This document shows positions 1,762 through 56,871 of a DNA stretch of 64,000 nucleotides, piece after piece. Source of the DNA: a candidate division CSSED10-310 bacterium (GTDB taxonomy: Bacteria > CSSED10-310); contig JAFGEQ010000011.1 of NCBI GenBank assembly GCA_016931515.1, positions 488 through 64,487 of the forward strand, read 5' to 3'. Position 1 is the stretch's first letter. Each line of letters begins with the position of its first letter. The position numbers were made by a program, and so were the translations under genes. Under the pieces are notes generated by a model. It saw nothing but the letters and a program-made list of their open reading frames with translations. It made no database searches and was not told the DNA's origin.

Positions 1762-2868
1762 TTTTCTCTTATCAGTGATGTAGATGCTGCCGTCCGATCC
1801 GACGACGATTGCGGACGGCGATTTCAAAATATCCTCTTCCGGATCGAGGTTCACGGTATGCAGGCAGGACCCACGGGGTGAGAAAATCGTTACCGTCCGA
1901 TTGTCGTTAAGTATGTAAAGGTGTCCGAACCAATCGATAGCCATGGCAACAGGGTCGGCCAGAATGTACCCCGGACCCTTGTACGGTATTTTGACTTCAG
2001 GTGAGTTACCCACAGTGATAATCATCCGGGAGGTCGGCGACATCATCCAGCATCCTCCGTAAGGATGGGGCAGGAGCTTTTCATCTCCACTGGGAGCACC
2101 GATCGCTATCGGACCAAGATATTGACCATCCTGATTGAAACGGAGCATCTGAGTGTTTCTGCGATCAAGAATCAGCCACTCATCGCTGACTGTGAAAGCA
2201 GCATCGATAATTCTTTCAATATCACCTGCTCCCTGGAAACTGTACATTTTCTGTTTTTCCCAGAAACCATAATCCGTAATGATGACGGGATTATCCCCGA
2301 TCGCTTTAAGAAACCTGCTGTGATCGGGTAATGGTGTAGTCGGAGGTATGGCCTGGTATCGCCCTTTCTCATCCGGTGACAATGTTATCAATCGATAACG
2401 ATCCATGACCAGGATCTGACCGTTTTCCGTCAACGCGATATCAGTTGGACTCTCCATCTCAATGCCACTGATCTGAAAATGCCGATCGATTCGAAATTCT
2501 CTGCCGGGTATGTATATTTGTTGCAAAACACTCAGTCGATCAAGCAAAATCGCTTTGCGTTCAACAGAAATATCCGGATTATTTATGGCGATTTCCAACC
2601 ATTCCATCGCTATCGGCGCTTTATGAACGATCACACACACTTTTGCGAACATTTCACAAGCAGAGATACCATCAGTACCCGATGGATTTCGCCAGAGAAA
2701 ATCCAGGAGTGATGCTTCAGCTTTTTGCCAATCCTGACTTTTCATCATTTGCTCAATCAAAGCCAATGATCGCGGGTTTTCAGCCCGGCAAGTGAGAGAC
2801 AGTCCAATCGGGAGCAGATGTGAAAAAGCCGTGACAAGCAAGAGCAATGTCATGTAGCGTGTTTTCAT
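1738..2868 (-). CDS. Secreted NHL-repeat (beta-propeller) protein with TPR-like N-terminal region
   Basis: ORF 1738..2928. The likely start is the internal MKTRYMTLLLLVTAFSHLL signal peptide at about 2868. Repeated DGxxYxxD / NHL-like blades (SDGSIYITD, FGHLYILNDN). Confidence 0.55.
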   Translation of the reverse strand: MKTRYMTLLLLVTAFSHLLPIGLSLTCRAENPRSLALIEQMMKSQDWQKAEASLLDFLWRNPSGTDGISACEMFAKVCVIVHKAPIAMEWLEIAINNPDISVERKAILLDRLSVLQQIYIPGREFRIDRHFQISGIEMESPTDIALTENGQILVMDRYRLITLSPDEKGRYQAIPPTTPLPDHSRFLKAIGDNPVIITDYGFWEKQKMYSFQGAGDIERIIDAAFTVSDEWLILDRRNTQMLRFNQDGQYLGPIAIGAPSGDEKLLPHPYGGCWMMSPTSRMIITVGNSPEVKIPYKGPGYILADPVAMAIDWFGHLYILNDNRTVTIFSPRGSCLHTVNLDPEEDILKSPSAIVVGSDGSIYITDKRKHEIYRFR

Positions 2869-4106
2869 CTGGAACATCCTTTTACGACCGGGATTCGCCG
2901 TGTCTGACCCGATACGACCTTGACCCAAATGCTTTGCGCATCGCTACACTGACTCCATCGGAATTCCACTTTGTAAAGTCCGGGCGCTACTTCGTAGGTG
3001 CCGGGTGTTCTACCAATCTCGTGATTAGCAACGGAGACCATTGCGCCAGGTGGATCGGAGGACAGAGCCATTTTTCCCGGTGGGTCGAGAATGATCGATT
3101 CGGTTTTCCCGGGTTTGATTGTAGTGGATTGTTCCAGGTTCAACAAATAGTCGGGATTGACGATACGGACGATTTGTTTCCCGGATGAAACTTGCACGGA
3201 TGCTGATTTTTTATCCTGTATAACGCGTTTGGATCCCACGTATACATCAACGGGATAGCTGCTTCTGATATCGAGTTTCCCTTTTTTCTCTTCTTTTGTG
3301 GAAGATGTCTTTTTCGAATTCTTTTGAGATGATTCTTCCTTGGGCAGCTTGTTAAGGTTCAGTATCACCGGATCGGAAAGACCCTTTCCGGGCACATTCA
3401 ACTCAAAAGTGGCGGTTTCATATCCGTCTTTTACGGCCTTTATTTTCACTGTCTCGCCTGTTTTGAGTTCGTATTCCATCGGGGTTGTTTTATTGGTGGA
3501 CACACCATCGATCTCAATAACAGCTCCCGAGGGTTTTGACTTAATTTTAATCTTGACAAACTCCGGAGTGAGACTGAATCGAGCCTCGATTTTTTCTGGT
3601 GAGAAAACAATGTCCGCCTGATCGGATCGGCCGACGATCTCCGGAGGTTTTTGAGGGTCGGCCGGAATCCGGATCAATAATTTTTCCGGAAGATACGCAG
3701 GGTGTTGAGCGTCTAAGATATGTTCGGATCCTCTGGTCCAGGTAACCGGTATTTGAATCGGTTTTTCCAATACAACCATATCCAGTTTGACAGATGCATC
3801 CTGCGGTTCGATCGAAACAACGAGTTGACTCCGGATCGAATCATCTCTAAGTCCCAGCATCCGTAGAATTCCGTCCGCTCCAAGGAACACCGCTCCGAGA
3901 GATGACATAATTATCAGCACGATTAATATAAAGAAGGGTAATCTGAATTTTTCCCAAAAAGTCGGTTCGGACCAGTCGACATCTAAACGATTCATAACAA
4001 CCTCATCGGACCTGTTTACGGCATTAATACTAACCCCGTCGATATATCGAGGCAAGTAAATAACCATAAATAGTATCTTTATCGCAGTTCGAAATCCGTC
4101 TTTCAT
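2865..4106 (-). CDS. PEGA-domain membrane-anchored protein (single TM, Lys/Ser-rich linker)
   Basis: One TM helix (FFILIVLIIMSSLGAVFLGA) and two PEGA-like modules (AVIEIDGVSTNKTTPMEY, AMVSVANHEIGRTPGTYEV). Shares a 4-nt overlap with the upstream NHL gene on the same strand. Confidence 0.5.
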   Translation of the reverse strand: MKDGFRTAIKILFMVIYLPRYIDGVSINAVNRSDEVVMNRLDVDWSEPTFWEKFRLPFFILIVLIIMSSLGAVFLGADGILRMLGLRDDSIRSQLVVSIEPQDASVKLDMVVLEKPIQIPVTWTRGSEHILDAQHPAYLPEKLLIRIPADPQKPPEIVGRSDQADIVFSPEKIEARFSLTPEFVKIKIKSKPSGAVIEIDGVSTNKTTPMEYELKTGETVKIKAVKDGYETATFELNVPGKGLSDPVILNLNKLPKEESSQKNSKKTSSTKEEKKGKLDIRSSYPVDVYVGSKRVIQDKKSASVQVSSGKQIVRIVNPDYLLNLEQSTTIKPGKTESIILDPPGKMALSSDPPGAMVSVANHEIGRTPGTYEVAPGLYKVEFRWSQCSDAQSIWVKVVSGQTRRIPVVKGCSR

Positions 4107-4172: not shown

Positions 4173-5660
4173 ATGCCGCGATCACTGCGAATAGCTTTTA
4201 TTGCTTCAGAATGCGATCCATTCATCAAAACCGGAGGTTTGGCGGATGTCATTGGTTCATTGCCGGGAGCCCTTCGGAGACTGGGTCATGAACCTGTAAT
4301 CATAGTTCCGCGATATGCTGGATTAAACCTTGAAAGGTTCAGACTCCGTCGGGCATTCGACAAGCTGGGGGTCTGGATGGGTAACTGCCTGGAATGGTGT
4401 GCAGTGGATCAGACGGCGTTGGATGATATCCCGGCCTTTTTTATTGAGAGTAATAAGTTTTTTGACAGGAATGGTCTGTATCATGACGATACATTCCGGG
4501 ATTATCCCGATAATGCCTACCGATTCGGCTTCTTCTCACGTGCTGCTTTGCAGTTACTGATTGATCTCAGACAGAAAATTGATGTCATACACATTCATGA
4601 TTGGCAAACCAGTTCCTGTGCAGCCTATCAGAAGATATGGCATTGGAATAACGAGATTCTGGGTAATACTGCATCGGTTCTGACCATACATAATATCGCG
4701 TACCAGGGCGTCTACCCGGTGGACTGTTACGAGTATCTCGGATTTCAATGGGGCAATTTTACATCCCAAAAATTCGAGGATCATGGTCGCGTCAATCTCC
4801 TGAAAGGAGGCATTCATTACTCCGACAGGATTACAACCGTCAGTCAAAAACACGCGGACGAAGTTCGCACGCCGGAGTATGCCTACGGCATGGCACCGTA
4901 TCTCAATATCAAAGCGGAACGATTCAGCGGCATACTGAATGGGATCGATTATTCGATCTGGAACCCCGAAATTGATCCATTGATCCCTGCTGTCTATTCT
5001 CGATTTGATATGACAGGCAAGGCAACCTGCAAACGGAATCTTCAGGAACGAATGGGCCTGACAGTCGACGCAACGATTCCGCTTATTGGAGTAATCAGTC
5101 GGTTTGCTTCTCAAAAGGGACTGCATTTATTCGCCGCTGCAGTCTCTGAACTGATGAATGAGATGATATTCCAGTGCGTGATTTTGGGTTCTGGAGATCC
5201 ATATCTCGAGACTTTTTTTCGGGAGCTTCCTGCGCAATATCCCGGCCGGGTGGCATCGTTCATTGGATTCAATAACGAGCTGGCGCATTGGATCGAAGCC
5301 GGTTCGGACTGTTTTCTTATGCCGTCGCTGTATGAACCTTGTGGTTTAAACCAATTGTATTCATTGAAATACGGCGCATTGCCGATAGTCAGGGCGACCG
5401 GAGGACTTGATGATTCGATTGACCAGTATTGTGAGCGAACGGGATCAGGGACGGGATTCAAGTTTTTCGAGCCATCACCGAAGGCACTGAGTAACACGGT
5501 GGGGTGGGCGGTGAGTACCTGGTACGACCGTTCCGGGCATTTTCGGCAGATGCAGGCTGCAGCTATGGAGAAGGATTTTTCGTGGGATGTCAGCGCTGTA
5601 GCATATGAGGATGTTTATTTTCAGGCACTGAATGACAGAATGGGTTCATCCGGAGTTTGA
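4173..5660 (+). CDS. glgA: Glycogen (starch) synthase, ADP-glucose type (GT5)
   Basis: N-terminal RIAFIASECDPFIKTGGLADVIGSLP (KTGGL motif). 495 aa, consistent with GT5. GGGAGG RBS before the ATG. Confidence 0.9.
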   Translation: MPRSLRIAFIASECDPFIKTGGLADVIGSLPGALRRLGHEPVIIVPRYAGLNLERFRLRRAFDKLGVWMGNCLEWCAVDQTALDDIPAFFIESNKFFDRNGLYHDDTFRDYPDNAYRFGFFSRAALQLLIDLRQKIDVIHIHDWQTSSCAAYQKIWHWNNEILGNTASVLTIHNIAYQGVYPVDCYEYLGFQWGNFTSQKFEDHGRVNLLKGGIHYSDRITTVSQKHADEVRTPEYAYGMAPYLNIKAERFSGILNGIDYSIWNPEIDPLIPAVYSRFDMTGKATCKRNLQERMGLTVDATIPLIGVISRFASQKGLHLFAAAVSELMNEMIFQCVILGSGDPYLETFFRELPAQYPGRVASFIGFNNELAHWIEAGSDCFLMPSLYEPCGLNQLYSLKYGALPIVRATGGLDDSIDQYCERTGSGTGFKFFEPSPKALSNTVGWAVSTWYDRSGHFRQMQAAAMEKDFSWDVSAVAYEDVYFQALNDRMGSSGV

Positions 5661-5736
5661 ACACTGGAGATATCTTCTATATATTACGAGACTTGATAGT
5701 CCATGGACTTAGACAAACCGGGAGTATTCAGATAGC

Positions 5737-6849
5737 ATGTCAGTACCCAACTACCTGGAATTTGCAACTAGGATTTTTCACAAGCGGAATGCTCTGCCGC
5801 ATTATCTCGTTTTTTTTGTCACGAAAAACTGCACGGCTCATTGCAAGCATTGCTTGCTAGGTGATGGTCAGCAAAGCTCCAACGAGCTGACTCTCGAAGA
5901 GATCGAGATGATGACGAAACACATGGATCCCCTGCTGTTTCTACTCATCACAGGAGGTGATCCATTTCTAAGGAATGATATCGCGCAGATCGTGCAGATT
6001 TTCTATAAAAATCCTGGATTTCGTAATTTAGGGATCCCATCGAATGGTTTTCTGACCGATAGAATCGTCGAGCAGAGTGAACGCATTTTAAGGGAGTGTC
6101 CGGGGATCGAGTTTGCGGTGGACATCAGTATCGACGGGATTGGAGCAGACCATGACGAGATTCGTCAGAAACCGGGACTTTTTGAAAAAGCGGTTGCAAC
6201 ATATCGTGAATTGGAAAAACTGACGAAACGGTATCAAAATTTCAACCTGAATATCGCAGTAACTGTTTCACATTATAATCATGACAAGCTTGATGCCATT
6301 TATAATTATCTTCGTAATGAGCTGGACGTAAAAACGATTAATCATCTTTTATGCAGGGGCAATCCACGAGACAAAGAAGCCCTCGATGTTGACATGGAGA
6401 ATTACCGGCGATTCTCCGATCGTCTGGACGAGGATCTGACTCGGAGTGTGTTGAAGGGTTATCATGGATTTTTTGCCGCAGATCTCGTGAATGCGATGAA
6501 AACGATTCGGCAGCGATTAATTCGAAAAATCCGGGATGAGAATCGATTCATAGTGCCATGCTATGCAGCGAAACTGGGAGTTATTCTTTACCCGGATGGG
6601 AGTCTGGCACCTTGTGAGTTGAGGGATGAGATCATCGGAAATCTCCGTACAAATGGCTATAATTTCAGAGCTCTGATGGAATCGGAAGAGGCTCATCGGA
6701 TTCGTAATCGGATAAAAGAACAACGATGTTATTGTACCTATGAATGTTTCCTTACCAATGCCGTTATATTCAACCCTTTGCTGTTCAGTCAGGTACTGCT
6801 GGAAACTGCGCGTGTTAAACTGAGTCGACTTGTTTCGGGAGGCAGGTAG
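5737..6849 (+). CDS. Radical SAM enzyme with C-terminal Cys-rich SPASM/twitch-like domain
   Basis: CTAHCKHC (CxxxCxxC) near the N-terminus. C-terminal cysteines PCYAAKLGVILYPDGSLAPC...CYCTYEC. Stop codon TAG 6847-6849 is immediately followed by the ATG of the GT2 gene at 6850. Confidence 0.8.
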   Translation: MSVPNYLEFATRIFHKRNALPHYLVFFVTKNCTAHCKHCLLGDGQQSSNELTLEEIEMMTKHMDPLLFLLITGGDPFLRNDIAQIVQIFYKNPGFRNLGIPSNGFLTDRIVEQSERILRECPGIEFAVDISIDGIGADHDEIRQKPGLFEKAVATYRELEKLTKRYQNFNLNIAVTVSHYNHDKLDAIYNYLRNELDVKTINHLLCRGNPRDKEALDVDMENYRRFSDRLDEDLTRSVLKGYHGFFAADLVNAMKTIRQRLIRKIRDENRFIVPCYAAKLGVILYPDGSLAPCELRDEIIGNLRTNGYNFRALMESEEAHRIRNRIKEQRCYCTYECFLTNAVIFNPLLFSQVLLETARVKLSRLVSGGR

Positions 6850-7533
6850 ATGCATAAAGATAGAAAAATAACCGTCGTTATTCCATGTTACAACGAAGAG
6901 GGAGGTATCGCCAGAGTCATACCCAGTCTTCCTGAGTTTATCGATGAAATCATCGTGGTTGACAACAATTCTACAGATCGGACAGCTGAAGTTGCGAGTG
7001 CAATGGGAGCACGTGTTGTCTCGGAACCCCGTCAGGGATATGGATGCGCTTACAAGGCGGGCCTTCCTGCTGCGCAAGGTGATATTGTCGTGACGATGGA
7101 TGGTGATGGTACGTATCCCGCGCATGCCATCTCCTACCTTATCGATACACTGTTGATCGACGACCTGGATTTTGTATCGGCCGCCAGAATCCCCGTGCAG
7201 TGGGCGCATTGCCCCAACATGATCAAGCGATATTTCGGGAACATTGCTCTGAGCATCGTGACTTGCATGTTATTCGGTATTCGTCTGAGGGACAGTCAGA
7301 GCGGCATGTGGGTATTCCGACGCCAAATCCTGGATAAAATCCAGGTCTTGAGTGATGGGATGCCTTTTTCAGAAGAATTCAAGATCCGGGCTTTTCGTCA
7401 CGAATCGATTTTCGCCCGTGAGGTTCCGGTTCAGTTCAAGTATATTACACGCGTAGGCGCATCAAAATTAAACTTATGGAAAGATGGGTACCGTAACCTG
7501 CTGTATCTTTTCAAGTTGAGAAGGGAAATGTAG
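6850..7533 (+). CDS. GT2 glycosyltransferase of the polyprenyl-phosphate sugar synthase type (Dpm1/GtrB/ArnC-like), short form without C-terminal TM helices
   Basis: VVIPCYNEEGGI, VVDNNSTDRT, TMDGDGTY, DSQSGMWVFRRQIL (the DxQSGFR motif typical of Dpm1-like enzymes). 227 aa. Confidence 0.8.
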   Translation: MHKDRKITVVIPCYNEEGGIARVIPSLPEFIDEIIVVDNNSTDRTAEVASAMGARVVSEPRQGYGCAYKAGLPAAQGDIVVTMDGDGTYPAHAISYLIDTLLIDDLDFVSAARIPVQWAHCPNMIKRYFGNIALSIVTCMLFGIRLRDSQSGMWVFRRQILDKIQVLSDGMPFSEEFKIRAFRHESIFAREVPVQFKYITRVGASKLNLWKDGYRNLLYLFKLRREM

Positions 7534-7570
7534 CGGTTAGCGGCAAGAGGCGGAAGAGGAAGGCAACGCT

Positions 7571-8869
7571 ATGTTCAGGAGATTGAGTCTGTCGCGCGAT
7601 ACTCTGGCTTTGGTTCTTGCCGGTGGACGGGTGGATGAGTTGGCAGCATTAACGGTTCACCGTCCCAAGGCTGCCATGCCGTTCGGTGGTCTCTACCGTG
7701 TTATCGATTGCGTTCTGACGAATCTGGCGGCCAGTGGCATCAATCGGGTCGGCATTCTGAGCCAGTACAGGCCGCTGTCTCTGATGGATCATGTGCGGAA
7801 CGGCAAATATTGGGATCTCAGTGGCTATCGGAGAGGACTGAGTTTTTTACCCCCACATACAGGAGAAACCGATGCTGACTGGTATAAGGGTACAGCTGAC
7901 GCGTTGTATCAGAATTGTGCTTTTATCGAACATAACAGGCGAAATCTGACCCTGATAGTATCGGGTGACCACATTTACAGGATGGATTACCGCGGTCTGT
8001 TCGATCTCCACATGCAGAGTCAATCGGATCTGACGATTGCTGTCACGCCGGTGCCCGAGACCGAAACACAACGATTCGGGCAGGTCAAAGTGGGACTGGA
8101 CGGATTAGTGCAGGAGTATCTCGAGAAACCCGTGAAACCGATTTCCAACCTTGCATCGATGACGGTATATCTGTTTAACACCGATGTTCTCCTGTCGGAG
8201 TTACGGCAGAATGCCAAGACCGGAAAAACATTTCAGATTTATGATGAAATCCTGCCCGATCTGGTTAAAAGGGGCCGGGTCTCCGCTTTTATACATAACG
8301 GTTATTGGGCTTACAGCCGATCGCTGGAGGCATATTTCAGGGCGAATATGGATTGTCTCGGATCGAAACCGGTTGTCGATCTGGAGCAATGGGAACTCCA
8401 TACCAATCATGATATCGGACGGATAGGTGATCATCCGCCTTTGCAATCGGGCACAAAATCGGACATCAAGAATTCCATTGTCTCTCCGGGGTGTATTATC
8501 AAGGGGAAGGTTATCAATTCCATTCTTTCACCGATGGTCTTTGTTGATGAAGGATCAGAAATCGTTGATTCCGTTGTAATGGAAGGAGTGAGAGTTGGAA
8601 CCGGCAGCATCATCCATCGTGCTATGCTGGACAAGTATGTCTCGATAGGAAACAATGTCCGGCTGGGAAGAAAATTTACTCACTCAGAATCGGATTCTCA
8701 GACTATTCCGGGGTTATTGGAATGCGGCATCTCGGTTGTCGGGAAACGGGCAAAGATAGATGATGGCATGGTGATCGGTTGCAATGTTTTGATTTATCCT
8801 GATTCACAGCCAAAACATCAGCTTGGATTGAGAGTGCAGGATGGCACTACTGTTCATCTGGAGAAGTAG
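7571..8869 (+). CDS. Glucose-1-phosphate adenylyltransferase paralog with degenerate catalytic motifs (GlgD-like regulatory subunit)
   Basis: Full-length GlgC fold (nucleotidyltransferase plus C-terminal LbH). The N-terminal motif reads LAGGRVDEL instead of GGxGxRL. The Lys of the PxKSLASMG-like motif is Asn ([12 protein letters not shown]). GDHIY is retained. Confidence 0.75.
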
Positions 8870-8878
8870 AGGGATACC

Positions 8879-10165
8879 ATGAATTTACCACCGGTTTGCA
8901 TGATTTTGGCCGGCGGGCAGGGCTCCCGCCTCAACGCTCTTGCATGGCATCGGGCCAAACCAGCGGTACCCTTCGCCGGAATTTTCCGTCTGATCGATTT
9001 CACTCTTTCCAATTCATCTAACAGTGGGCTGATGAGAACGGGAATACTCACCCAATATCTGCCTCTTTCTTTGATGGATCATATTGGCACCGGTTCATCG
9101 TGGGATATGTCGGCGCGAACAAGGGATTGCAGAATCCTGCCTCCGACAGAAGGTGTGACAGCAAAAGACTGGTATCAGGGTACTGCACATGCCATTGCAA
9201 TGAACAGTGATTTTGTCTATCAGGGTAATGAGAAAGAGATTTTAATTTTATCCGGCGATCATATCTATCACATGGATTACCGGCCGATGATCCAGTTTCA
9301 TCGTGATAAAAAAGCTATATTTACGATTGCAACCATGCCGGTTGCTCCCGAAGAAGCTCACCGTTTTGGAATCGCCGTGACCGACTCAAATAATCGGATC
9401 CTTGAGTTTCAGGAAAAACCATCCTCCCCGAAAAGTACGACCGGTTCCATGGGAATTTATGTGGCCGACAGGGATGTTGTTCTTACACGGATGAAACACC
9501 TGATCTTGAAGGGGAAAACGGATATCGGTGCGCATCTGGTTCCGTCTCTGATTGGTGAAGGAAACGTATATGCATTTCCGTTCGACGGATACTGGAGAGA
9601 TGTCGGTACACTGGATTCATATTGGGAATGTTCGATGGATCTTCTGTCTCCGGAAACCAGTGGAGTGGATCTTGTCCGATGGAATATGAGAACCAACATG
9701 GAAGCATCGGGTCTGAGTCTCAGGGCTCCAAGCCGCTTCGGTGACTGCGCCCGTGTGACCGAGTCGATGATTGCACAGGGATGCAGAATCGATGGACGCG
9801 TCCATCGGTCCGTTTTATCTCCCGGCGTTAAAATTGGCGCCCGAGCGGAAGTTGTGGATTGCGTTATTTTCGATGACACAATCATAGGGGAGGGCGCTCA
9901 AATCTATCGGGCGATTATCGATAAAAATGTCTCAATCGGGTCGGGTGCACGTATCGGTCCGACAGGGAACGACGTGCGCAATCAATTGTTTCCCGATCAC
10001 CTGGGCTCCGGATTGACTCTGTTGGGAACTCGAAGTGTGGTACCTGCGGGTGCAAGCATTGCAGGTAATTGTCTCGTGTATCCGAATACCGTTCAATCAG
10101 ACTGGTCCCATGAGACATTGATGTCCGGTCAGACACTGCGTCCGGCAAAATTCGACAATGGCTAG
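8879..10165 (+). CDS. glgC: Glucose-1-phosphate adenylyltransferase (ADP-glucose pyrophosphorylase), catalytic subunit
   Basis: [43 protein letters not shown] all conserved. C-terminal LbH region present. Confidence 0.85.
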
Positions 10166-10173
10166 AGAAGCTG

Positions 10174-10629
10174 ATGACAATATTAGAACTCGAACAGTCG
10201 GATGAATGGGGATGGGAAATGCCGGAAGGTAAAAGCAATCATCCGACTCATCCGAACCAGGCTCCCTTCAAAGCAATGCAGAGATATCTGGATGTCGAGC
10301 GATTACCGGATAGTCTGGATGTTGTTCGCGAAGTCAGGAATCAAGCCGTAAAGAAGCTGGAAATGCTGGATCAGATGCATAGGGAGTTGATCGGCAAGGC
10401 CCGCAGTATTATCGAAAAAGCCAAAGAGGATCTGCGCCTGCACTCGGTTCGCATGCATGCGGCTAAAATTCGTAATCGGATTTATTATCTCTACTCCCGT
10501 GACAAGGGTAATGAGCAAGAGTTTTTTTCAATACTGGATCCGGATGAATACCATGCAGCTGATCCCAACTCTCGTTACATTGGAGCGTACAGACTTAATG
10601 AAGACAGCTCCTGGACTCGACTCGAATGA
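10174..10629 (+). CDS. Hypothetical cytoplasmic protein (151 aa)
   Basis: ORF follows glgC directly. No recognisable motifs. Its 3' end overlaps the start region of the next gene. Confidence 0.4.
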   Translation: MTILELEQSDEWGWEMPEGKSNHPTHPNQAPFKAMQRYLDVERLPDSLDVVREVRNQAVKKLEMLDQMHRELIGKARSIIEKAKEDLRLHSVRMHAAKIRNRIYYLYSRDKGNEQEFFSILDPDEYHAADPNSRYIGAYRLNEDSSWTRLE

Positions 10630-12727
10630 ATGGTCTCAGCGGAACGTAAGCGGATGGACTGACTCAACATCCGCGGGGGTTATTATTGCGGTACTCGTAA
10701 TAATCTATGTCACGTTCTTCAATCCCATACTGCGTTATGACGGGATCCAATACATGGCTCCGGCTCGTTCGCTGCTTATCGACGGGAATCTCAATACTTA
10801 TGATGAAGGTGTCTATTACACACAGCCAGGATGGTCGGATGTATCCAAGCGAAAAATCACTGGGCGACCACCACCCATCATCAGTTATGTTTCCGCACCG
10901 GATTATACTTCCCGGGGATATCGGTTTGTTGTTTTCCCAATTGGTAATCCGATAATCTGGTTGCCGCCACTGGGACTGTGCCACCTCGTTATCTCCGGTA
11001 TCCCCGCACTTCAAACTCTGTTTCCTGCTGACGGTTTTTCTCTCCCATACCGTCTCGGTCTGGGTTGGTGGAGTTTTCTTATAGGAGCAACGGGTCTTGT
11101 CATTGCTTATAAAATTCTCCGAATCTGGTACCGGCCTGTTGTGGCGTGTGTTTCATCCCTCTTTGTATTTACCTCCGGAAATATCATTCAATTCGTGACT
11201 CGAGATGTCACATTCTCCCACTGCATTGATTTTCTTCTTATCAACGCATCGATAATGATGTTCCTGAAGCTGGCAAATGACTCAGAACAGAACCGACAAC
11301 CCATCGAATCACATCTGTTCTGGGGAATTCTATCAGGATATACATTTATCGTACGCTATCAGGATGTAGTTCTGATCATTTTACCATTGTGGTATTACAT
11401 CTTCGAGCCCGATCGTCACAAAGGGAATCGATGGCGAAATCCCATTTTGTTTTTGACCGGATTGCTTTTCTCCACCGGACTCCAACTTTTCTACTGGAAA
11501 ATTCTCTACGGCTCGTGGTTGATTTCAAACCGTCTGATGGGTACGGGATGTTTAGCATCATTCCAGCCTTTAAAACCGCAACTTCTCGATATGTTATTCA
11601 GCCGTTTTCATGGTCTGTTCAATTGGATGCCCTGGATGCTGGTTCTAACAATTGCCTATCTGCTTTTCATTAAAAGAAACAAACGGTTTGGAATATTATT
11701 CCTGATTATTATGGTCATTCAAACCTACTATATTTCAAGTCGTTCTGAATGGTGGAATCTGGGTTTCTCAGTACGGCGTTATGCCGGGTGGAATCTTTTC
11801 TTCATGATCGGTGCAGCTGAAATATTCTCGCGATGTGGACGACCTGTCGAAAAAATTGCCTGCACAACCGTTGTTGTCCTGACGAGTTTCTGGTCATGGC
11901 TGTTCCAGATCTGTTACCATTCCATGAGTCGTTGCGGCCATATATATAAGCACTTAATTCGGGATTCCTCGCCGTATCATCCCGTAACGTACCACCCCAT
12001 TTTGCCGTCGCGGATAGATGTCATCAGAGCCATTGTTCATCTGAAGACATGGTTTGCGGAATACACACTATTTCCAGGTATCGTAGAATTTTTCAAAACC
12101 AATTACTCACTCGTTGCCATTGCACTCCTATCGTGCCATATCCTGTTCCTGATCGTTCTGAGTATCTGGATCCAATACCTGAAAAAGACAACTCTACCTC
12201 TCCGGAATTTACTGGCTGTCAGCCTCCTCTTTATCCTGATCGTTTCGGTGTGGATGATTCAATCGGATATTCATTCAAAGGATGTCATCGTACATCGGTT
12301 ATCTCAAAACAGACGTAATGACATACATCAGGTTGTCCGCATTCCGGTTGCGTCGGAATTTATGGGAGAAAACGTATTTCTTGATCTGAGTGACGAACCG
12401 ATAACATTCACTCGTCCGGATCCGGTCAACGCACAATGGGGATTTGCGCTTCTCGGTTCCACTATGGGGAATGATAAAGCGACGGTTGCCGTTCGATTAA
12501 AGCGGGATGGAGTGGTGTTCGATGAAAAAAGGTTCGGCATGAAAGCAGGTATAACACCGGACGTTGTGAGGATTGAAGTGCCATGGAAGGAAGTGTCGGA
12601 TGATCGTTATTGGTACGTGATGCGTTCCGAACCGACGGATGAAAGTGCTGTGCCCGACTCTTGGGACATTGTCCTCATAGAGGGAGAAAGTGTTCAATTG
12701 GGAGCTTTTTGGCATTACCTGGATTGA
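10598..12727 (+). CDS. Large polytopic membrane protein, GT-C fold glycosyltransferase-like (ArnT/PMT/COG1807-like)
   Basis: ORF 10457..12727. The probable start is MKTAPG at about 10598 (alternatively 10544), which gives a short cytoplasmic N-terminus, then TM1 (VIIAVLVIIYVTFF), then a periplasmic loop with acidic/aromatic residues (YDGIQYMAPARSLLIDGNLNTYDEG). More than 10 further TM helices and a C-terminal soluble domain. Confidence 0.55.
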   Translation: MKTAPGLDSNEWSQRNVSGWTDSTSAGVIIAVLVIIYVTFFNPILRYDGIQYMAPARSLLIDGNLNTYDEGVYYTQPGWSDVSKRKITGRPPPIISYVSAPDYTSRGYRFVVFPIGNPIIWLPPLGLCHLVISGIPALQTLFPADGFSLPYRLGLGWWSFLIGATGLVIAYKILRIWYRPVVACVSSLFVFTSGNIIQFVTRDVTFSHCIDFLLINASIMMFLKLANDSEQNRQPIESHLFWGILSGYTFIVRYQDVVLIILPLWYYIFEPDRHKGNRWRNPILFLTGLLFSTGLQLFYWKILYGSWLISNRLMGTGCLASFQPLKPQLLDMLFSRFHGLFNWMPWMLVLTIAYLLFIKRNKRFGILFLIIMVIQTYYISSRSEWWNLGFSVRRYAGWNLFFMIGAAEIFSRCGRPVEKIACTTVVVLTSFWSWLFQICYHSMSRCGHIYKHLIRDSSPYHPVTYHPILPSRIDVIRAIVHLKTWFAEYTLFPGIVEFFKTNYSLVAIALLSCHILFLIVLSIWIQYLKKTTLPLRNLLAVSLLFILIVSVWMIQSDIHSKDVIVHRLSQNRRNDIHQVVRIPVASEFMGENVFLDLSDEPITFTRPDPVNAQWGFALLGSTMGNDKATVAVRLKRDGVVFDEKRFGMKAGITPDVVRIEVPWKEVSDDRYWYVMRSEPTDESAVPDSWDIVLIEGESVQLGAFWHYLD

Positions 12728-18022: not shown

Positions 18023-19846
18023 ATGCACGAATTATGTGCAAAAGCAACGCTCGCAGATCTCTTTTTGCTGACAAGTGAGCGGTTTGCTCATCGTGGAGCA
18101 GTCCGTTTCCGCAGGGATGGCCGATGGACCGAATACTCATTCAGAGAATTGAGGGAGAGGGTGTTCGCATCTTTTCATGCTCTTCGGTACATCGGTTTGG
18201 CGAAGGGTGATCATATTGCGATATTATCAGAGAATAGGCCGGAGTGGTTTATTGCGGATCTGGCCATCCAGTGTCTCGGCTGTGCTTCGGTGCCATTGTA
18301 TGCAACGTTAAAAACTGACCAGATTCAATATATCATTCAGCAGAGTGAGGCGAAGCTGATCTTCGTTGAGAACCGCGAACAACTTGGAAAAATCCGTCAT
18401 TGTCTGAATGAACTTCCGAACCTGAAAAAACTTGTCGTGCTGGATCCGTTCGGTGTTGAGCTGGATGAAAAGGTCATATCATTTCAGGAATTCCACTATC
18501 TTGGAAAGGAATTGTTGAAGAAGGGCGAATCGGACGTTCTGGAGTCGGTGCAGTCCATCCAGCCCGAGGATCTTGCGAGTCTGGTCTATACATCGGGAAC
18601 AACAGGGCATCCTAAGGGTGTCATGCTGACGCATTTGAATTTCATGTCGGATATTATGAGTTTGAAACGGGTTTTCGAACTCTCCGAAGAAGATATAATC
18701 CTCGGGATTCTCCCGTTATCTCATGTTCTCGAACGATGTGGTGCATATTATACTGCCTTTCTGGCTTCCGGATCCATGTATGTATTCACGGAATCACTCG
18801 AAACAGTCGCTCGTGACATGACGGAAGTAAAACCAACGTTTATTGTGGCTGTGCCGCGTCTTTTTGAAAAGATCTATCTGCGCATCATCGACTCGGTCAA
18901 ATCCGGTAGTGGTGTTAAAAAAGCACTGTTCAACTGGGCTCTGCAAGTTGGACGTGCATATTATCTTGAGCATCGTGCATCCCCTCCCGGATTTGTTTTG
19001 CAGCAACAGTTCCGCTTAGCCAATCAACTCGTATTCTCAAAATTGCATCAACGGTTTGGGGGCAGGATTCGTTATTTTGTCTCGGGTGGCGCGTCGCTGG
19101 AGCCTAGAATAGCTCAGTTTTTTGCGTCGGTTGGAATAAAAATAATGGAAGGATACGGTTTGACCGAAACATCTCCAGTCAATACCGTGAACCATGATAA
19201 GGCTGTTCGTCTGGGTTCTGTCGGAAAGCCCATCGACTGTGTTCAGATCAAGCTGGCTGAAGATGGAGAAATCCTGATCAAAGGTCCCAATGTCACCCGG
19301 GGATACTATCGGAAACCGGAAGAAACTCAAGAGTTATTCGATGATGAAGGCTGGTTGAAAACGGGAGACATCGGTCGAATCGATGAAGACGGATTTCTAT
19401 GGATAATAGACAGGAAAAAGGAAATCATCGTTACCTCGGGCGGCAAAAATATCGCTCCCCAACCGATCGAATCGATGCTGACGTCAAATCCTTTCATCAG
19501 TCATGCGATGCTGGTCGGAGATCATCGAAATTTTATAGCGGCTCTTATCGTTCCGGATTTCGAAACACTCAGCAATTGGTGCCGGAAAAACGGACTCGGC
19601 GATCTCGATATGGAACAAATGATTAAGCACGAAGATGTATATAACAAAATACAGAGCGAGATTCAGGAAACCATTGCCGGATTGCCGCGCTATGAGCAAG
19701 CTAAGAAATTTATCCTTCTGTCAAATCCATGGACTATCGAAGGTGGCGAACTCACACCGACAATGAAGTTAAAAAGGCGAGTGATTTTAAGGAAATTCAG
19801 CTCGCATATCGAATCTCTCTACCGGCCGGACATCAGGCAACGGTAA
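18023..19846 (+). CDS. Long-chain fatty acid--CoA ligase (AMP-dependent synthetase)
   Basis: YTSGTTGHPKGVMLTH (AMP-binding P-loop), TGDIGRIDEDGFLWIIDRKKE, 607 aa. Confidence 0.8.
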   Translation: MHELCAKATLADLFLLTSERFAHRGAVRFRRDGRWTEYSFRELRERVFASFHALRYIGLAKGDHIAILSENRPEWFIADLAIQCLGCASVPLYATLKTDQIQYIIQQSEAKLIFVENREQLGKIRHCLNELPNLKKLVVLDPFGVELDEKVISFQEFHYLGKELLKKGESDVLESVQSIQPEDLASLVYTSGTTGHPKGVMLTHLNFMSDIMSLKRVFELSEEDIILGILPLSHVLERCGAYYTAFLASGSMYVFTESLETVARDMTEVKPTFIVAVPRLFEKIYLRIIDSVKSGSGVKKALFNWALQVGRAYYLEHRASPPGFVLQQQFRLANQLVFSKLHQRFGGRIRYFVSGGASLEPRIAQFFASVGIKIMEGYGLTETSPVNTVNHDKAVRLGSVGKPIDCVQIKLAEDGEILIKGPNVTRGYYRKPEETQELFDDEGWLKTGDIGRIDEDGFLWIIDRKKEIIVTSGGKNIAPQPIESMLTSNPFISHAMLVGDHRNFIAALIVPDFETLSNWCRKNGLGDLDMEQMIKHEDVYNKIQSEIQETIAGLPRYEQAKKFILLSNPWTIEGGELTPTMKLKRRVILRKFSSHIESLYRPDIRQR

Positions 19847-21644
19847 CGGATTTTGCCAGAGAACGCGGTCTGTCGACATTTCGTTTTAGTATGACAGCCG
19901 AATAGTACGCAAACATTTGCCCCAGAACAAGCAACAGGACAGGCGCGCTGATTTGATCACTGTCCTGGAGATTGATCTCGTGATTAAAAATGCCGACACG
20001 TTCTCCGAAACCAAATCCGACAATGAATCCATCCCTGGATTTGATTTCCTCGGCATTGGCGATTGTATGCTGAAACAATTCTATTGAGGACCGTGGTGGC
20101 AAAAAGAAGATCGAACCGAACGATTTGTCAATCAGGGCGATTGTCCCGTGTTTCATGAAACCTCCGGACACTCCCTCCGCATGATGATAAGTAACCTCCT
20201 TCATTTTTAAAGCAGCTTCACGAGCAATAGCGCTGTATATACCCCTGCCGATGAAAAGCCAATTCCGATAGGATTGCGTCTGTTGAGCCAGATTGTTTAC
20301 AAACCCCTTGCTTTCATTGATAACTCGACGGATCATTCCCGGCAAAGCCGCCAGGCTTTTTAAATGAGAGTCATAATCGCTTCCGGTAAGATGACCCGAT
20401 CGACGTCCCAACTCCAGGGCTATTCTGATTGCTATTGTTATTTGAGCAACGGCTGCTTTCGTCGAAAGTACACAGATCTCGGGTCCTGACTGCTGCATGA
20501 TCGCGAGATCAGTCTCCGAGACCATGGTCGACCCCATGACATTGATTATCGCGGCTGTCCGAGCGCCGAATTTTTTAGCATATCTCAATGCCGTCAACGT
20601 ATCGTATGTTTCCCCGGATTGGGAGAAAGCCAGAACAAGGGAACGGTCCGATAACTGGGCGATGTATTCGAATTCGTCGGAGGAAACGGCAATCAAGTGC
20701 CGGCCTGATAAAAGGGCACAATAGTATTGAACGCACTCCGCGACGTAATAAGTGGTTCCGACTCCAAGAAGATATACGCGATCAGCGTTGAGGATCCAAT
20801 CGCAGACGAGATTTATTTTCTCAATATCCACTTTCAGGGCTGACTCAACCGTGCTGGGCTGCTCGTGAATTTCCTTCAGCATATAATGCGGATAACCGCC
20901 CTTTTGACTAAGTTCGGGGTCCCAATCCAGAGTCACGATATCCCGAGTGATTTTTTCTCCGGATAACAGATTCCGGATTGATACAGCTTCACGATCAATG
21001 ACGACATACTCGCCATCCTTAACGGGTATAACATTACGCGTATAGTCCAGGATGGCGTTATAATCCGAGCCGATATAATTTTCGTTAATGCCCAGCCCGA
21101 TTATCAACGGGCTTTCTCTCCGGGCGGCATAGATGTGATTTGGATCGTGGACGCTGATTACTGCGAATGCAAAGGTCCCATCCAGATCGCGGGACATACG
21201 TCGAATGGATTCTTCCAGATCGCCACTGGATCTGAAATGGAAATCGATAAGATGCACGAGAACTTCGGTATCGGTATCGGATAGAAATTGATAATCCTTG
21301 GACTCCAGCATTTGCCGAAGATCACGATAATTTGAAATGATGCCATTGTGTACAAGTGCAAATTCACCTTGATTGCTGGCATGAGGATGAGCGTTTTCGC
21401 GCGTAACTGCACCGGTTGTTGCCCAGCGGGTATGGCCAATGCCAATCATGCCGTTCATTTCATTGAATTTCAGGATCTCGGACACCTGTTTTACAGGACC
21501 CTTGTCTTTTCGAACATCGATAACGCCGTTATTACAGACAGCCAGCCCGCAGGAATCATATCCGCGATATTCCAGGTTCAGAAGTGATCTGACCAATTTG
21601 GGAGCGACCCGACTCGAGCTGACAATACCCACGATTCCGCACAT
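19833..21644 (-). CDS. glmS: Glutamine--fructose-6-phosphate aminotransferase (isomerizing)
   Basis: MCGIVGIV N-terminal nucleophile Cys, two SIS domains, 603 aa. Confidence 0.9.
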   Translation of the reverse strand: MCGIVGIVSSSRVAPKLVRSLLNLEYRGYDSCGLAVCNNGVIDVRKDKGPVKQVSEILKFNEMNGMIGIGHTRWATTGAVTRENAHPHASNQGEFALVHNGIISNYRDLRQMLESKDYQFLSDTDTEVLVHLIDFHFRSSGDLEESIRRMSRDLDGTFAFAVISVHDPNHIYAARRESPLIIGLGINENYIGSDYNAILDYTRNVIPVKDGEYVVIDREAVSIRNLLSGEKITRDIVTLDWDPELSQKGGYPHYMLKEIHEQPSTVESALKVDIEKINLVCDWILNADRVYLLGVGTTYYVAECVQYYCALLSGRHLIAVSSDEFEYIAQLSDRSLVLAFSQSGETYDTLTALRYAKKFGARTAAIINVMGSTMVSETDLAIMQQSGPEICVLSTKAAVAQITIAIRIALELGRRSGHLTGSDYDSHLKSLAALPGMIRRVINESKGFVNNLAQQTQSYRNWLFIGRGIYSAIAREAALKMKEVTYHHAEGVSGGFMKHGTIALIDKSFGSIFFLPPRSSIELFQHTIANAEEIKSRDGFIVGFGFGERVGIFNHEINLQDSDQISAPVLLLVLGQMFAYYSAVILKRNVDRPRSLAKSVTVA

Positions 21645-21655
21645 AAATGACCTTT

Positions 21656-22864
21656 CTATTCTTTAGGGTAGGTCCCGAAGTGAGGGATAGACATGCCGGA
21701 GGCAATTTTCGTTCCCGGGAGGAAAGTATGATTTGCACCAATCCAGGTTTTATCTCCGATAAACGATCCGAGCTTAAGCAATCCCGAGTCTATCGATTCA
21801 CCGGCGATATCCACGTGAACCGTACTCTGGTCCATATTGATATTGACCATAATGGTCGCCGAGCCAACATTCACGTCATGCCCGATCACGGAATCACCGA
21901 TGAAACTCAATCGCCCAATCTCCGATCCCGGCATCAGTACCGAGTTTTTGACTTCCACTCCGAATCCGATGATCGATCCCTCTCCTATACATGTATATTC
22001 ACGCAACAGTGCATTGTGGCCAATGAAACTGTTTTTTCCGATATAACAAGGCCCAATGATGGACGAGCCCGTTTTAATCGTGACATTATCTTCGATATAT
22101 ACCGGTCCGGAAATCATCGATCCAGGTTCAATAATAGTGGTTATTGCGAAACTTGATCGATCCCACTGTTTCATGTGTATTCTATTCGCAGCCAGGATAC
22201 TCCAGGGATAAGCGATATCGATCCAGTCTCCCTCCCAGATGGATGCATACATATCCATGGAATCCTGCATCACACGAAACGCCTCGATCACATTCCCGGA
22301 GCAATCAGCGAGAATTCTGAAGAATGAACCCGGCAGGATAAATGCGCCTGCCAGAATGTAATTGCCCAGATTTTTGGATCGAGGTTTCTCAATGATTTGG
22401 GTGATCCGCATGTCATGATCCATATAAATCACACCAAAATCGCTGGAATCGCCCGTCAGACTCACTGCTGCTACAGGTTTCCGGACCCGATTAAATGAAT
22501 GGATCAAGGCTCTGAACAGATTTCCCGAATACATGATGTCACCGTAAGCCAGTAAAAAGAAGTCTCTTTCATCAATGAATTCTTTTGCTGTAAGGATGCC
22601 CTGACCAACACCCAACGATTGATCTTGTGTCAGGATTGTCAGCGACGGCGATTTCAAATCATTTGAATCGGAACAGTCGTAGTCCATGGAGCTGTATTTT
22701 GGATTTACCACCACGGCGGTGTCGTGGATCCCTATCTGCTGGAGTGATTCGATCAACCGGGCTAAAATCGTCTTTCCACAGATTGAGATCAACGCTTTGG
22801 GTCGACATTCGGTAAGGGGCTCAAGACGTGTGCCCGGCCCTGCTGTCAATATGACTGCTTTCAT
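21656..22864 (-). CDS. Bifunctional sugar-1-phosphate nucleotidyltransferase / LbH acyltransferase (archaeal-type GlmU-like)
   Basis: MKAVILTAGPGTRLEPLT...PKAL nucleotidyltransferase signature. The C-terminal half consists of hexapeptide repeats. Sits 12 nt upstream of glmS on the same strand. Confidence 0.7.
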   Translation of the reverse strand: MKAVILTAGPGTRLEPLTECRPKALISICGKTILARLIESLQQIGIHDTAVVVNPKYSSMDYDCSDSNDLKSPSLTILTQDQSLGVGQGILTAKEFIDERDFFLLAYGDIMYSGNLFRALIHSFNRVRKPVAAVSLTGDSSDFGVIYMDHDMRITQIIEKPRSKNLGNYILAGAFILPGSFFRILADCSGNVIEAFRVMQDSMDMYASIWEGDWIDIAYPWSILAANRIHMKQWDRSSFAITTIIEPGSMISGPVYIEDNVTIKTGSSIIGPCYIGKNSFIGHNALLREYTCIGEGSIIGFGVEVKNSVLMPGSEIGRLSFIGDSVIGHDVNVGSATIMVNINMDQSTVHVDIAGESIDSGLLKLGSFIGDKTWIGANHTFLPGTKIASGMSIPHFGTYPKE

Positions 22865-55593: not shown

Positions 55594-55638
55594 TGATGCG
55601 TTTGATGGGGAACTGAATAGTTCCTGAGACATAGATCT

Positions 55639-55722
<84 letters not shown>

Positions 55723-55730
55723 TATTGAAT

Positions 55731-55812: not shown

Positions 55813-56871
55813 ATGGAAACACATCGCCAAATAAACAATAAAACAGACAATCGGATTGATGAGTCAACCCGTTTATTGCAACTTGCCGAAGCATGCCCGG
55901 ATAAAGATCAAGCGAAAAAATCGATCTTTCCTGTGTTCCTCTCCGGCTATGCCTGCTCGGGGCGATGCATCTATTGCAATGCCGCCCTGTCCAGCGGATA
56001 CGGGGCACCGCCTGATTTCCAGGCGCTGGACCGGGATTTGACCGACTGGCTGGAAAAACCGGACCGGCGGAGCGACATGGAAATCGCCTGGTACGGTAAT
56101 GACCTGCCCGATGTTCCCGAAACGGTCATTAAAGAACTCCTCGCCCTCTGCTCAAGAAGGGCATTCAACGAGACGATTCCTGGACTCCGTCTGTCGATTC
56201 GCCCGGATTCGGTTCTCAAGACTCCGGTCAAACTGCTTTGCGCCTTCTCGGTAGTGGAGCTTGGCGTGCCGTCGATGGATCCGGATATACTCAAATTGAT
56301 CCGTCGTGGACATGAACCGAACGCTGTGAATGACGCCTTGATACTGCTTCGCAGCCTCGGGATCCGAACCGGGTTCCAGACGATGGTCGGGTTACCGGGT
56401 GCCAATGCCGCATCGGATCACCGAACTGCCGAACTCCTGGCAGCGCTTAGCCCGGATTTCGTGCGAATTCATCCAACACTTGTTTTGCACGGTACGGTGC
56501 TGGCGGAGATGGCTGATGCCGGCGAATACCGGCCACTGGATCTGGAGGACGCCATCGAACGATGCGCAGATATCTGGGACATCTACGCTCGCAGGGAAAT
56601 TCCGGTCACGCGTTGTGGATTTCATTTGCCGGAGACGGAACGCGATCGTGCGCTGCACTCCGGGCCGTGGCATCCCGCATTCGGCCAGCTCGTGCGCTCC
56701 CGGCGGTGGCGCCGGCTGCTGGATAAGCAGTTGTCGGCTCAGCCCGATCAACTTGTGTTGACGGTGCCTCCCGATGATTTTTCCGATGCCGTCGGGCATA
56801 AAAAGGAGAATCTGCGATGGTTGCAGGAGAAGCATGGAGTGGGAGTGGCGGTATTGAAAGTTGAAAGTTGA
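55813..56871 (+). CDS. Radical SAM protein (ELP3/HemN-like, TIGR01212-like architecture)
   Basis: CSGRCIYC (CxxxCxxC), ELGVPSMDPDILKLIRRGH. GC-rich, 352 aa. Confidence 0.7.
   Translation: METHRQINNKTDNRIDESTRLLQLAEACPDKDQAKKSIFPVFLSGYACSGRCIYCNAALSSGYGAPPDFQALDRDLTDWLEKPDRRSDMEIAWYGNDLPDVPETVIKELLALCSRRAFNETIPGLRLSIRPDSVLKTPVKLLCAFSVVELGVPSMDPDILKLIRRGHEPNAVNDALILLRSLGIRTGFQTMVGLPGANAASDHRTAELLAALSPDFVRIHPTLVLHGTVLAEMADAGEYRPLDLEDAIERCADIWDIYARREIPVTRCGFHLPETERDRALHSGPWHPAFGQLVRSRRWRRLLDKQLSAQPDQLVLTVPPDDFSDAVGHKKENLRWLQEKHGVGVAVLKVES

Follow-up and report, generated by a model that had tools for sequence, protein, structure and literature searches.

The stretch of DNA analysed here, hereafter the window, comprises 64,000 nt of contig JAFGEQ010000011.1 from a candidate division CSSED10-310 bacterium (GCA_016931515.1), and between positions 4173 and 12727 it carries a row of seven genes, all on the + strand: glgA, a radical S-adenosylmethionine (SAM) gene, a short glycosyltransferase family 2 (GT2) gene, a GlgD-like paralog, glgC, a DUF2452 gene and the gene of a GT-C fold membrane protein. 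The genes follow one another at distances of 76, 0, 37, 9, 8 and -32 nt, and the order, single strand and tight spacing given in a preliminary description of this DNA were confirmed for all seven. It is the radical SAM-GT2 pair, rather than the glycogen link, that is the interesting part of the locus. The TAG stop codon of the radical SAM gene (5737-6849, +; 370 aa) directly abuts the ATG of the GT2 gene (6850-7533, +; 227 aa), suggesting translational coupling, and a GGGAGG Shine-Dalgarno sequence lies within the 3' end of the radical SAM gene. A scan for promoters and terminators was uninformative for the row, with 8 terminator-like matches as compared to 7.3 in shuffled sequence; as these sites do not exceed the shuffled level, co-transcription of the row is plausible, if unproven.

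The conservation of the pair was analysed by scanning species-representative genomes with the radical SAM alignment, which gave at least 399 confirmed relatives, of which the best 80 loci were studied. An ortholog of the GT2 (45-82% identity) was found no more than 700 nt downstream of the radical SAM gene in 49 of the 75 assessable loci, with a median gap of 79 nt, and elsewhere within the locus in four more. Loci with the pair occur in CSSED10-310, Schekmanbacteria, the PVC group, Chloroflexota, Acidobacteriota, Auribacterota, Myxococcota/Deltaproteobacteria and Binatia, and the pairing is not due to chance. In the reverse test, metagenome contigs were scanned for the GT2 itself, and a radical SAM gene was present upstream of it in 5 of 61 assessable loci. 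The radical SAM gene is thus usually accompanied by the GT2 gene while the GT2 gene usually occurs without it, a pattern that suggests optional tailoring by the radical SAM protein, either of the GT2 product itself or further downstream. Most of the metagenome GT2 loci were Wzt/ABC-type polysaccharide clusters that also contained a GT4, a methyltransferase and another three or four GT2s. Among the individual clusters, L108 (1983-13491), L121 (8001-14010) and others encode Wzt, a methyltransferase, a GT2-GT4 fusion of about 800 aa, the short GT2, three more GT2s and a GT4, with an alanine racemase coming next.

Directly upstream of the radical SAM gene, 48 loci carry a member of a further family, here called F1, which is an MftF-like GT2 with three C-terminal transmembrane (TM) helices. 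An exhaustive profile search for the radical SAM protein returned 2026 cluster representatives at E<=1e-30, and fusions were sought among the best 150. At least ten of these 150 are proteins of 620-720 aa in which an N-terminal F1-type GT2 with three TM helices is joined to a C-terminal radical SAM domain (at least six representatives checked with Pfam and five more by length). A single representative, P0283, consists of the radical SAM domain followed by a GT2 resembling dolichol-phosphate mannose synthase (DPMS) and ArnC (VVDDGSTDGT, MDADL, DHQCGLKGFR), which keeps the gene order of the pair, and its GT2 part aligns end to end with the GT2 of the window. The fusions follow the order of the separate genes, which places the radical SAM enzyme at the membrane beside glycosyltransferases.

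At least one PMT_2, PMT, YfhO, PTPS_related or window-type GT-C gene was found in 32 of the 80 radical SAM loci, and two to five such genes in 14. Other neighbours in these loci were Wzx-type flippases, a phosphoglycosyl transferase, GT4s, a deacetylase, a nucleoside-diphosphate-sugar epimerase or dehydratase, B12 radical SAM genes and membrane-anchored alkaline-phosphatase-fold transferases. The GT-C arrays, flippases and GT4s around the radical SAM gene indicate an envelope-glycan context, and the two-step logic proposed in the preliminary description, in which a polyprenyl-phosphate GT2 is followed by a GT-C transferase, gained support from the other phyla, where the pair sits among PMT_2, PMT, YfhO and PTPS_related GT-Cs. 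In four related loci (L005-L007 and L010, about 4.3-10 kb; for example 4355-9916 in L006) the cassette is preceded by an MftF-like membrane GT2 and two BchE/HpnJ-like B12 radical SAM genes, and the same stretch encodes a membrane-anchored sulfatase-fold protein without the formylglycine motif; these upstream genes have the appearance of a larger cluster for the tailoring of glycolipids or glycans. None of these upstream partners (membrane GT2, B12 radical SAMs, sulfatase-fold gene) was found in the 64-kb window. A full-text literature search turned up no publication in which a radical SAM enzyme is connected with polyprenyl-phosphate glycosyltransferases or GT-C systems, and this widespread cassette of a radical SAM enzyme and a polyprenyl-phosphate glycosyltransferase is apparently undescribed.

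The radical SAM protein contains the cluster motif C32xxxC36xxC39 and five invariant cysteines in a SPASM-type C-terminus, and its CxxxCxxC motif, auxiliary cysteines and fold all agree with a twitch/SPASM enzyme. The folds closest to its structural model (predicted local distance difference test (pLDDT) 88.9) were SkfB, BlsE, SuiB, the anaerobic sulfatase-maturating enzyme (anSME), MoaA, viperin, PqqE and DesII, which places it in the twitch/SPASM group, whose substrates include peptides as well as sugars. With just 31 residues ahead of the cluster motif, the N-terminus is too short for a peptide-recognition domain, and Pfam revealed no B12-binding domain, unlike in HpnJ-type enzymes. We propose that the protein is a tailoring enzyme working with membrane-associated GT2s. 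The sugar-acting twitch/SPASM enzymes BlsE (a decarboxylase), BtrN and SpeY (dehydrogenases) and DesII share 11-17% identity with it and use soluble nucleoside or aminoglycoside sugars, whereas the present family is linked to membrane GT2s through fusion or coupling. The mycofactocin system is similar in that a SPASM-type radical SAM enzyme (MftC) is encoded with a GT2 (MftF), and MftF is the best curated match of the F1 membrane GT2 of the 48 related loci; however, neither an MftA precursor nor an MftB chaperone is present here, F1 is absent from the window, and the scores fell far under the cut-offs (MftF 105 vs 280, MftC 47 vs 265). By mechanism only, the enzyme can also be likened to calditol synthase (Cds) of Sulfolobus and to HpnJ, which forms the hopanoid cyclitol ether; both are radical SAM enzymes that rearrange a lipid-bound hexose after a glycosyltransferase has put it on the lipid (PMC13459092). 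In contrast to the system considered here, Cds and HpnJ act on tetraether or hopanoid lipids and not on polyprenyl phosphate, their products are end-point head groups and not donors, and HpnJ binds B12.

The short GT2 carries RDSQSGMWVFRR, which is near the DxQSGFR signature quoted in the preliminary description. Its best NCBIfam matches were Dol-P-hexose transferase, AglJ and PpgS, all under cut-off, while a PDB search with the single sequence placed DPMS of P. furiosus (PfDPMS; 5mlz) first over the whole domain. A family profile built from 21 orthologs and compared with the PDB matched DPMS (1.9e-23) and ArnC (5e-17) at full length including the acceptor loop, with profile positions 3-206 and 5-209 aligned, respectively, in agreement with the initial view of the protein as a Dpm1/GtrB/ArnC-like GT2. 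Glucosyl-3-phosphoglycerate synthase (GpgS) and other GT2s matched the profile in the nucleotide-binding (N-terminal) half only, which speaks against a GT2 of the soluble-acceptor type, and GpgS was rejected on this ground as the main assignment.

Invariant positions in the 21 family members are D84xD86, R113, D148SQSGMW, R201, G203 and S205-K206-L207. D84-G-D86 aligns with the DXD metal/diphosphate motif D89-A-D91 of PfDPMS, as in a GT-A domain, and Glu12, Asp89/Asp91, Arg117 and the acceptor-loop residues Arg202/Lys208 of PfDPMS, whose roles are known (PMC5526996), correspond to the invariant E16, D84/D86, R113 and R201/K206. On the other hand, the guanine-binding Asp39 is replaced by an invariant Asn (VDNNSTD; DNN motif), indicating that nucleotide specificity differs from that of the GDP enzymes, Thr/Tyr stand at the metal- and sugar-contacting Gln93/His94, and of the two residues that bind the phosphate of dolichyl phosphate in bona fide DPMS, Ser135 is an invariant G130 here, and Arg131 has R127 one position off. 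Since the authors of the DPMS study found no counterparts of Ser135 and Arg131 in GtrB either (PMC5526996), this mismatch excludes DPMS proper and not the wider class. No TM segment was found in the GT2, but a hydrophobic helix (residues 128-144; Kyte-Doolittle 1.76) and a C-terminal helix occupy the positions of interface helices IFH1 and IFH2. A PfDPMS variant without its TM domain (delta230-352) retains activity and membrane targeting, and human DPM1 likewise does without TM helices, so the missing TM domain is compatible with activity. Compared to PfDPMS and the type II DPMS (human DPM1 with DPM2/DPM3), the GT2 thus shares the GT-A domain, the DXD motif, the Arg117 counterpart, the acceptor loop RxGxSKL and putative hydrophobic interface helices, and with DPM1 the lack of a TM domain, but differs from PfDPMS in the substitutions at Asp39, Gln93/His94 and Ser135 and from DPM1 in that no DPM2/DPM3-like partner was identified. 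From these alignments we concluded that it probably works like a polyprenyl-phosphate glycosyltransferase, and not as a GDP-mannose DPMS proper.

The last two genes of the row form a unit of their own. The gene product formerly called a small hypothetical is a soluble DUF2452 protein of 151 aa (10174-10629, +; PF10504, 82 bits), and the 3' end of its gene overlaps the GT-C gene (10598-12727, +) by 32 nt. The GT-C protein had been given as a 756-aa ORF from 10457, which would overlap DUF2452 by 173 nt; this start was dropped in favour of the ATG at 10598, giving 709 aa, as the deposited protein matches with 100% identity and coverage and the homologues have 702-715 aa. Pfam and PDB sequence searches gave no significant family match, and the only NCBIfam match was to LA_3751/LA_3752 (E 9e-4). 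Comparison of an AlphaFold model based on 29 homologues (pLDDT 85.9; predicted template modelling score 0.89) nevertheless revealed the GT-C fold that had been suspected for this protein, with a C-terminal beta-sandwich, resembling a carbohydrate-binding module (CBM), at residues 560-709. D48 of the motif RYDG, kept in at least 90% of the 29 aligned homologues, follows directly after TM1 (residues 22-40), the position where GT-C enzymes carry their catalytic acid. The 709-aa protein is a candidate user of a lipid-phosphate-linked sugar donor. The DUF2452 protein, which we take to belong to the family of eukaryotic C1orf50, had homologues only on contigs of the same lineage in a word-indexed homologue search. 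Its gene lies directly ahead of, or overlaps, a GT-C homologue in L001-L003, L081 (DUF2452 at 9585-10046), L082 and L164 (8576-9067), while in L163 (9001-9465) it is followed by an unannotated, contig-truncated gene starting about 320 nt downstream; wherever this GT-C family occurred with its upstream sequence intact, DUF2452 came directly before it or overlapped it, no matter which operon lay further upstream, and the protein could be an accessory subunit of the GT-C.

Elsewhere in the window, two tandem AftB-like GT-C paralogs (56948-58528 and 58521-60143, both -), 30% identical, are located where the GC content is 57-60%, the background being 47%. They share the motif (H/I)DDA(W/F)I(T/S)FRYA after TM1, have no Pfam match, and their best NCBIfam match was the terminal beta-(1->2)-arabinofuranosyltransferase, far under cut-off; these GT-Cs are possible further users of a lipid-linked sugar.

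The remaining genes of the row belong to glycogen metabolism. GlgA (4173-5660, +) is an ADP-glucose-type glycogen synthase that passed the curated subfamily model TIGR02095 (520.8 bits, cut-off 328.45) and also matched PF08323. The two GlgC paralogs share 38% identity. The product of glgC (8879-10165, +), probably the catalytic subunit of glucose-1-phosphate adenylyltransferase, aligned with E. coli GlgC over its full length (1.9e-67) and keeps GGQGSRL, RAKPAV, WYQGTA, GDHIY and EKP, with 395 bits on PRK05293, under the cut-off of 470. Its neighbour (7571-8869, +) has GGRVDEL for the catalytic loop of the GGxG[ST]RL type (GGRGTRL in E. coli, GGQGSRL in the adjoining glgC product) and KAAM for KPAV. 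The best NCBIfam models for this neighbour were GlgC, under cut-off, and both paralogs scored higher on GlgC than on GlgD models, in each case under the equivalog cut-offs. Because the glycine-rich loop is degenerate and KAAM replaces KPAV, the label GlgD-like used in the preliminary description is a fair one, and the protein is probably a non-catalytic regulatory subunit; the explanation that fits best includes that the pair would make ADP-glucose. The arrangement resembles GlgC/GlgD and GlgA of Firmicutes, where a catalytic subunit and a paralog with a degenerate loop are encoded with glgA close by, but here both paralogs favour GlgC models below equivalog level and two unrelated genes separate glgA from glgD/glgC. 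GlmS-like and GlmU-like genes (nucleotidyltransferase and hexapeptide; 19833-22864, -) lie 7-10 kb downstream of the cluster, a putative further route of nucleotide-sugar supply close to the GT2.

The order of genes in the window, from a PEGA-domain protein (2865-4106, -; divergent from glgA, 66 nt apart) through glgA, radical SAM, GT2, glgD-like, glgC, DUF2452 and GT-C to an Xaa-Pro peptidase, is not unique to this genome but recurs in L001-L003, where the PEGA neighbour is kept, and in the metagenome locus L083. Among the loci analysed, these were the only ones with this order or with glgA upstream of the radical SAM gene, and glgA is a lineage-specific neighbour outside the conserved cassette. 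In L004, L006 and L007, radical SAM-GT2-glgD-glgC is retained but glgA is missing, L005 has no glg genes, and none were found in the approximately 70 radical SAM-GT2 loci outside the candidate phylum; whether the pair always lies between glgA and glgC can hence be answered in the affirmative for the closest relatives only. One conserved operon was rejected, as the pieces are separate elsewhere, and the single lipid-linked module within an ADP-glucose operon that was first envisaged is partly supported at best, the complete arrangement being confined to the closest relatives and the links to glgA and the GT-C not being conserved.

The gene identities, folds, conservation of the pair, fusions and GT-C-rich context observed here led us to a reading that we consider somewhat probable on balance. 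According to this, the locus consists of three units, namely the glycogen genes, the radical SAM-GT2 cassette and DUF2452 with the GT-C, which are probably co-transcribed, and the cassette would tailor a lipid-linked sugar. We infer that the GT2 is anchored at the cytoplasmic face of the membrane through its putative hydrophobic interface helices and moves a hexose from a nucleotide sugar onto polyprenyl phosphate, after which the radical SAM enzyme would remove a hydrogen atom from the sugar, most likely while it is lipid-linked; epimerisation, oxidation, deoxygenation and ring contraction are candidate outcomes. The lipid-linked sugar would then be flipped by a transporter encoded elsewhere and passed to a presumed envelope glycan by GT-C enzymes, for which the 709-aa protein and possibly the AftB-like pair at 56.9-60.1 kb are candidates here and PMT_2/YfhO-type proteins in other phyla. 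The outer membrane beta-barrel, FadL and TolB neighbours indicate a diderm envelope.

A number of observations weigh against this reading. As most members of the GT2 family occur without the radical SAM gene, the radical SAM enzyme could act elsewhere in the pathway, and it has five auxiliary cysteines rather than seven or eight. NCBIfam and Pfam gave no curated equivalog for it (nor, for that matter, for the GT2, DUF2452 or the GT-C), and all homologues are from uncultured organisms. With Gly for Ser135 and Asn for Asp39, neither the acceptor nor the donor of the GT2 is readable by homology. In L004-L007, L081, L163 and L164, DUF2452-GT-C is immediately preceded by a HydABC/formate-dehydrogenase-like operon; in L004-L007 and L081 this operon of about 10 kb shares its contig with the radical SAM-GT2(-glgD-glgC) block and follows downstream of it, and the window and L001-L003 lack it. 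Since the operon separates glgC from DUF2452-GT-C in these sisters, the junction in the window is the product of a lineage-specific deletion or insertion, and the GT-C is linked to the cassette by regional synteny only, not specifically. Finally, no flippase gene (GtrA, MATE, ArnE/F or Wzx) was found among the Pfam-scanned ORFs, short ORFs excluded, from 1 to about 30 kb of the window, so that the locus departs from three-component systems, in which a flippase is encoded with synthase and GT-C, although Wzx-like genes are present in some related loci of other phyla.

The broader proposal that follows from tailoring at the lipid-linked stage is that the radical SAM enzyme represents a fourth component of lipid-carrier glycosylation, in which radical chemistry on a polyprenyl-phosphate hexose would yield donors without a nucleotide-sugar precursor, to be placed on envelope glycans by GT-Cs, and in which the hexose of CSSED10-310 may come from ADP-glucose; we put this forward tentatively, as a possibility that is still doubtful. 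The known three-component systems (GtrA/GtrB/GtrC; CsbB/GtcA/YfhO; ArnC/ArnEF/ArnT; polyprenyl-phosphoribose synthase/MATE/GT136) likewise combine a synthase at the cytoplasmic face with a GT-C, and the GT136 enzyme ORF12 of the pentofuranose systems is, as the GT-C of the window, a GT-C with a C-terminal CBM-type domain (PMC11127046). They differ in that the window locus has a synthase without TM helices and no flippase gene was found there, that its GT-C is tied to the synthase by regional synteny only, and that the synthase here has a conserved radical SAM partner, none having been found described for those systems. Tailoring of the sugar at the lipid-linked stage, including by epimerases, is known from three-component systems (PMC11127046): the ArnD deformylase, DprE1/DprE2 and the ORF13 epimerase modify it after attachment to polyprenyl phosphate and before transfer by a GT-C (PMC11127046), but these are hydrolases or flavin/NAD oxidoreductases, whereas the candidate radical SAM enzyme would allow chemistry on unactivated C-H bonds.

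Among the alternatives, the least unlikely is that the whole 8.5 kb serves one pathway, in which ADP-glucose from GlgC/GlgD would be the donor of the GT2 and glucose would be split between glycogen, through GlgA, and a lipid-linked glucose modified by the radical SAM enzyme for the adjacent GT-C. The tight spacing on the same strand along the whole row fits with this, as does the finding that the GT2-glgD-glgC adjacency outlasts upstream rearrangement (L004, L006 and L007 without glgA; also L083), and the invariant Asn at the Asp39 position makes specificity unlike that of the GDP enzymes. In L084, a soil/sediment metagenome locus without radical SAM gene, gyrB is followed by a GlgC-like gene (6663-7985; GGRAERL, RAKCAIPF, GDQVY, EKP) and, directly downstream of it, a short GT2 gene (8001-8705) with 55% identity to that of the window. 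Hence ADP-glucose may be the donor, as judged from adjacency only (GT2-glgD-glgC in one lineage, and L084), but neighbouring positions in a single lineage may reflect inherited synteny. Moreover, the roughly 70 pair loci outside the phylum have no glg genes, some carrying a GalE/dehydratase-type gene beside the GT2 instead, L005 of the same lineage has no glgC after the GT2, and the GT-C lies about 10 kb from glgC in sister genomes. To our knowledge, the characterised polyprenyl-phosphate glycosyltransferases use UDP- or GDP-sugars, and ADP-glucose would be an unusual donor for the class; the glycogen link matters only if ADP-glucose is the donor.

Slightly less likely again is that the product of the cassette is a glycoconjugate, membrane or soluble, that is never handed to a GT-C. 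The GT2 would then add its sugar to the head group of a lipid or to a small phosphorylated acceptor, with the radical SAM enzyme turning the hexose into a carbocycle, as in calditol or the bacteriohopanetetrol cyclitol ether, or the product would be a primer of the glucosylglycerate/methylglucose-polysaccharide type extended by GlgA-like enzymes. Cds and HpnJ are radical SAM precedents on lipid-bound hexoses (PMC13459092), the clusters of relatives hold two HpnJ/BchE-like B12 radical SAMs and a membrane alkaline-phosphatase-fold transferase, a 1-deoxy-D-xylulose-5-phosphate synthase gene adjoins the radical SAM gene in L009, and the row has no flippase gene found nearby. However, HpnJ-type enzymes bind B12, which the present enzyme does not according to Pfam, and GT-C genes are strongly enriched around the cassette. 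When the single GT2 sequence was compared with the PDB, GpgS ranked second among the classes of match, but in the family profile the match to GpgS is half-length while those to DPMS and ArnC run to the end including the acceptor loop.

Very improbable, lastly, is a role of the radical SAM enzyme in maturing a peptide or protein (sactipeptide/ranthipeptide- or anSME-like) that the GT2 would glycosylate: SkfB, SuiB, anSME, PqqE and CteB are among its best sequence or fold matches, a sulfatase-fold protein adjoins it in 15 loci and F1 is most like MftF, but the cluster motif at residue 32 leaves no space for peptide recognition, the 76-nt upstream gap is too small for a precursor ORF, the row contains no small ORF or gene for a recognition element of peptides that are made by the ribosome and modified afterwards (RiPPs), the fusions join membrane GT2s and not peptide-binding domains, the GT2 shows features of polyprenyl-phosphate glycosyltransferases, and the fold neighbours include the sugar-acting BlsE and DesII. 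A RiPP maturase was accordingly judged unlikely for lack of a recognition domain and precursor. The role of an anSME for the sulfatase-fold neighbours was rejected, as these have N-terminal TM helices, all appear membrane-anchored and mostly lack the C/SxPxR motif (the few pattern matches, in longer ORFs, look incidental); no sulfatase gene was found in the row or among the Pfam-scanned ORFs of the window.

Periplasmic glycosylation through polyprenyl phosphate diversifies bacterial surfaces, for example by O-antigen glucosylation, aminoarabinose on lipid A, decoration of teichoic acids and the mycobacterial arabinan, and the tailoring at the lipid-linked stage that we know of is hydrolytic or redox. 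If the tailoring proposed here is true, a radical SAM partner found across many phyla, and sometimes fused to a glycosyltransferase, would constitute a new class of chemistry for lipid-carrier glycosylation and would predict envelope sugars that are not foreseeable from nucleotide-sugar pathways. For enzymologists, the pair offers two small proteins (370 aa and 227 aa) as a defined and testable system, and for annotators, it would give a name to roughly 2000 cluster representatives that are currently only called 'radical SAM protein'.

Two further ORFs of the window, encoding 849 aa (51937-54486, -) and 324 aa (61656-62630, +), belong to no Pfam or NCBIfam family. After a tRNA-Leu(GAG) gene (55638-55723, +) comes another radical SAM gene, unrelated to the first (55813-56871, +; PF04055 and Radical_SAM_C), and at 56911-56953, on the edge of the high-GC segment, the 7-nt unit TTTCAAT is repeated six times in tandem; this repeat and the tRNA-Leu region might mark the boundary of an island.

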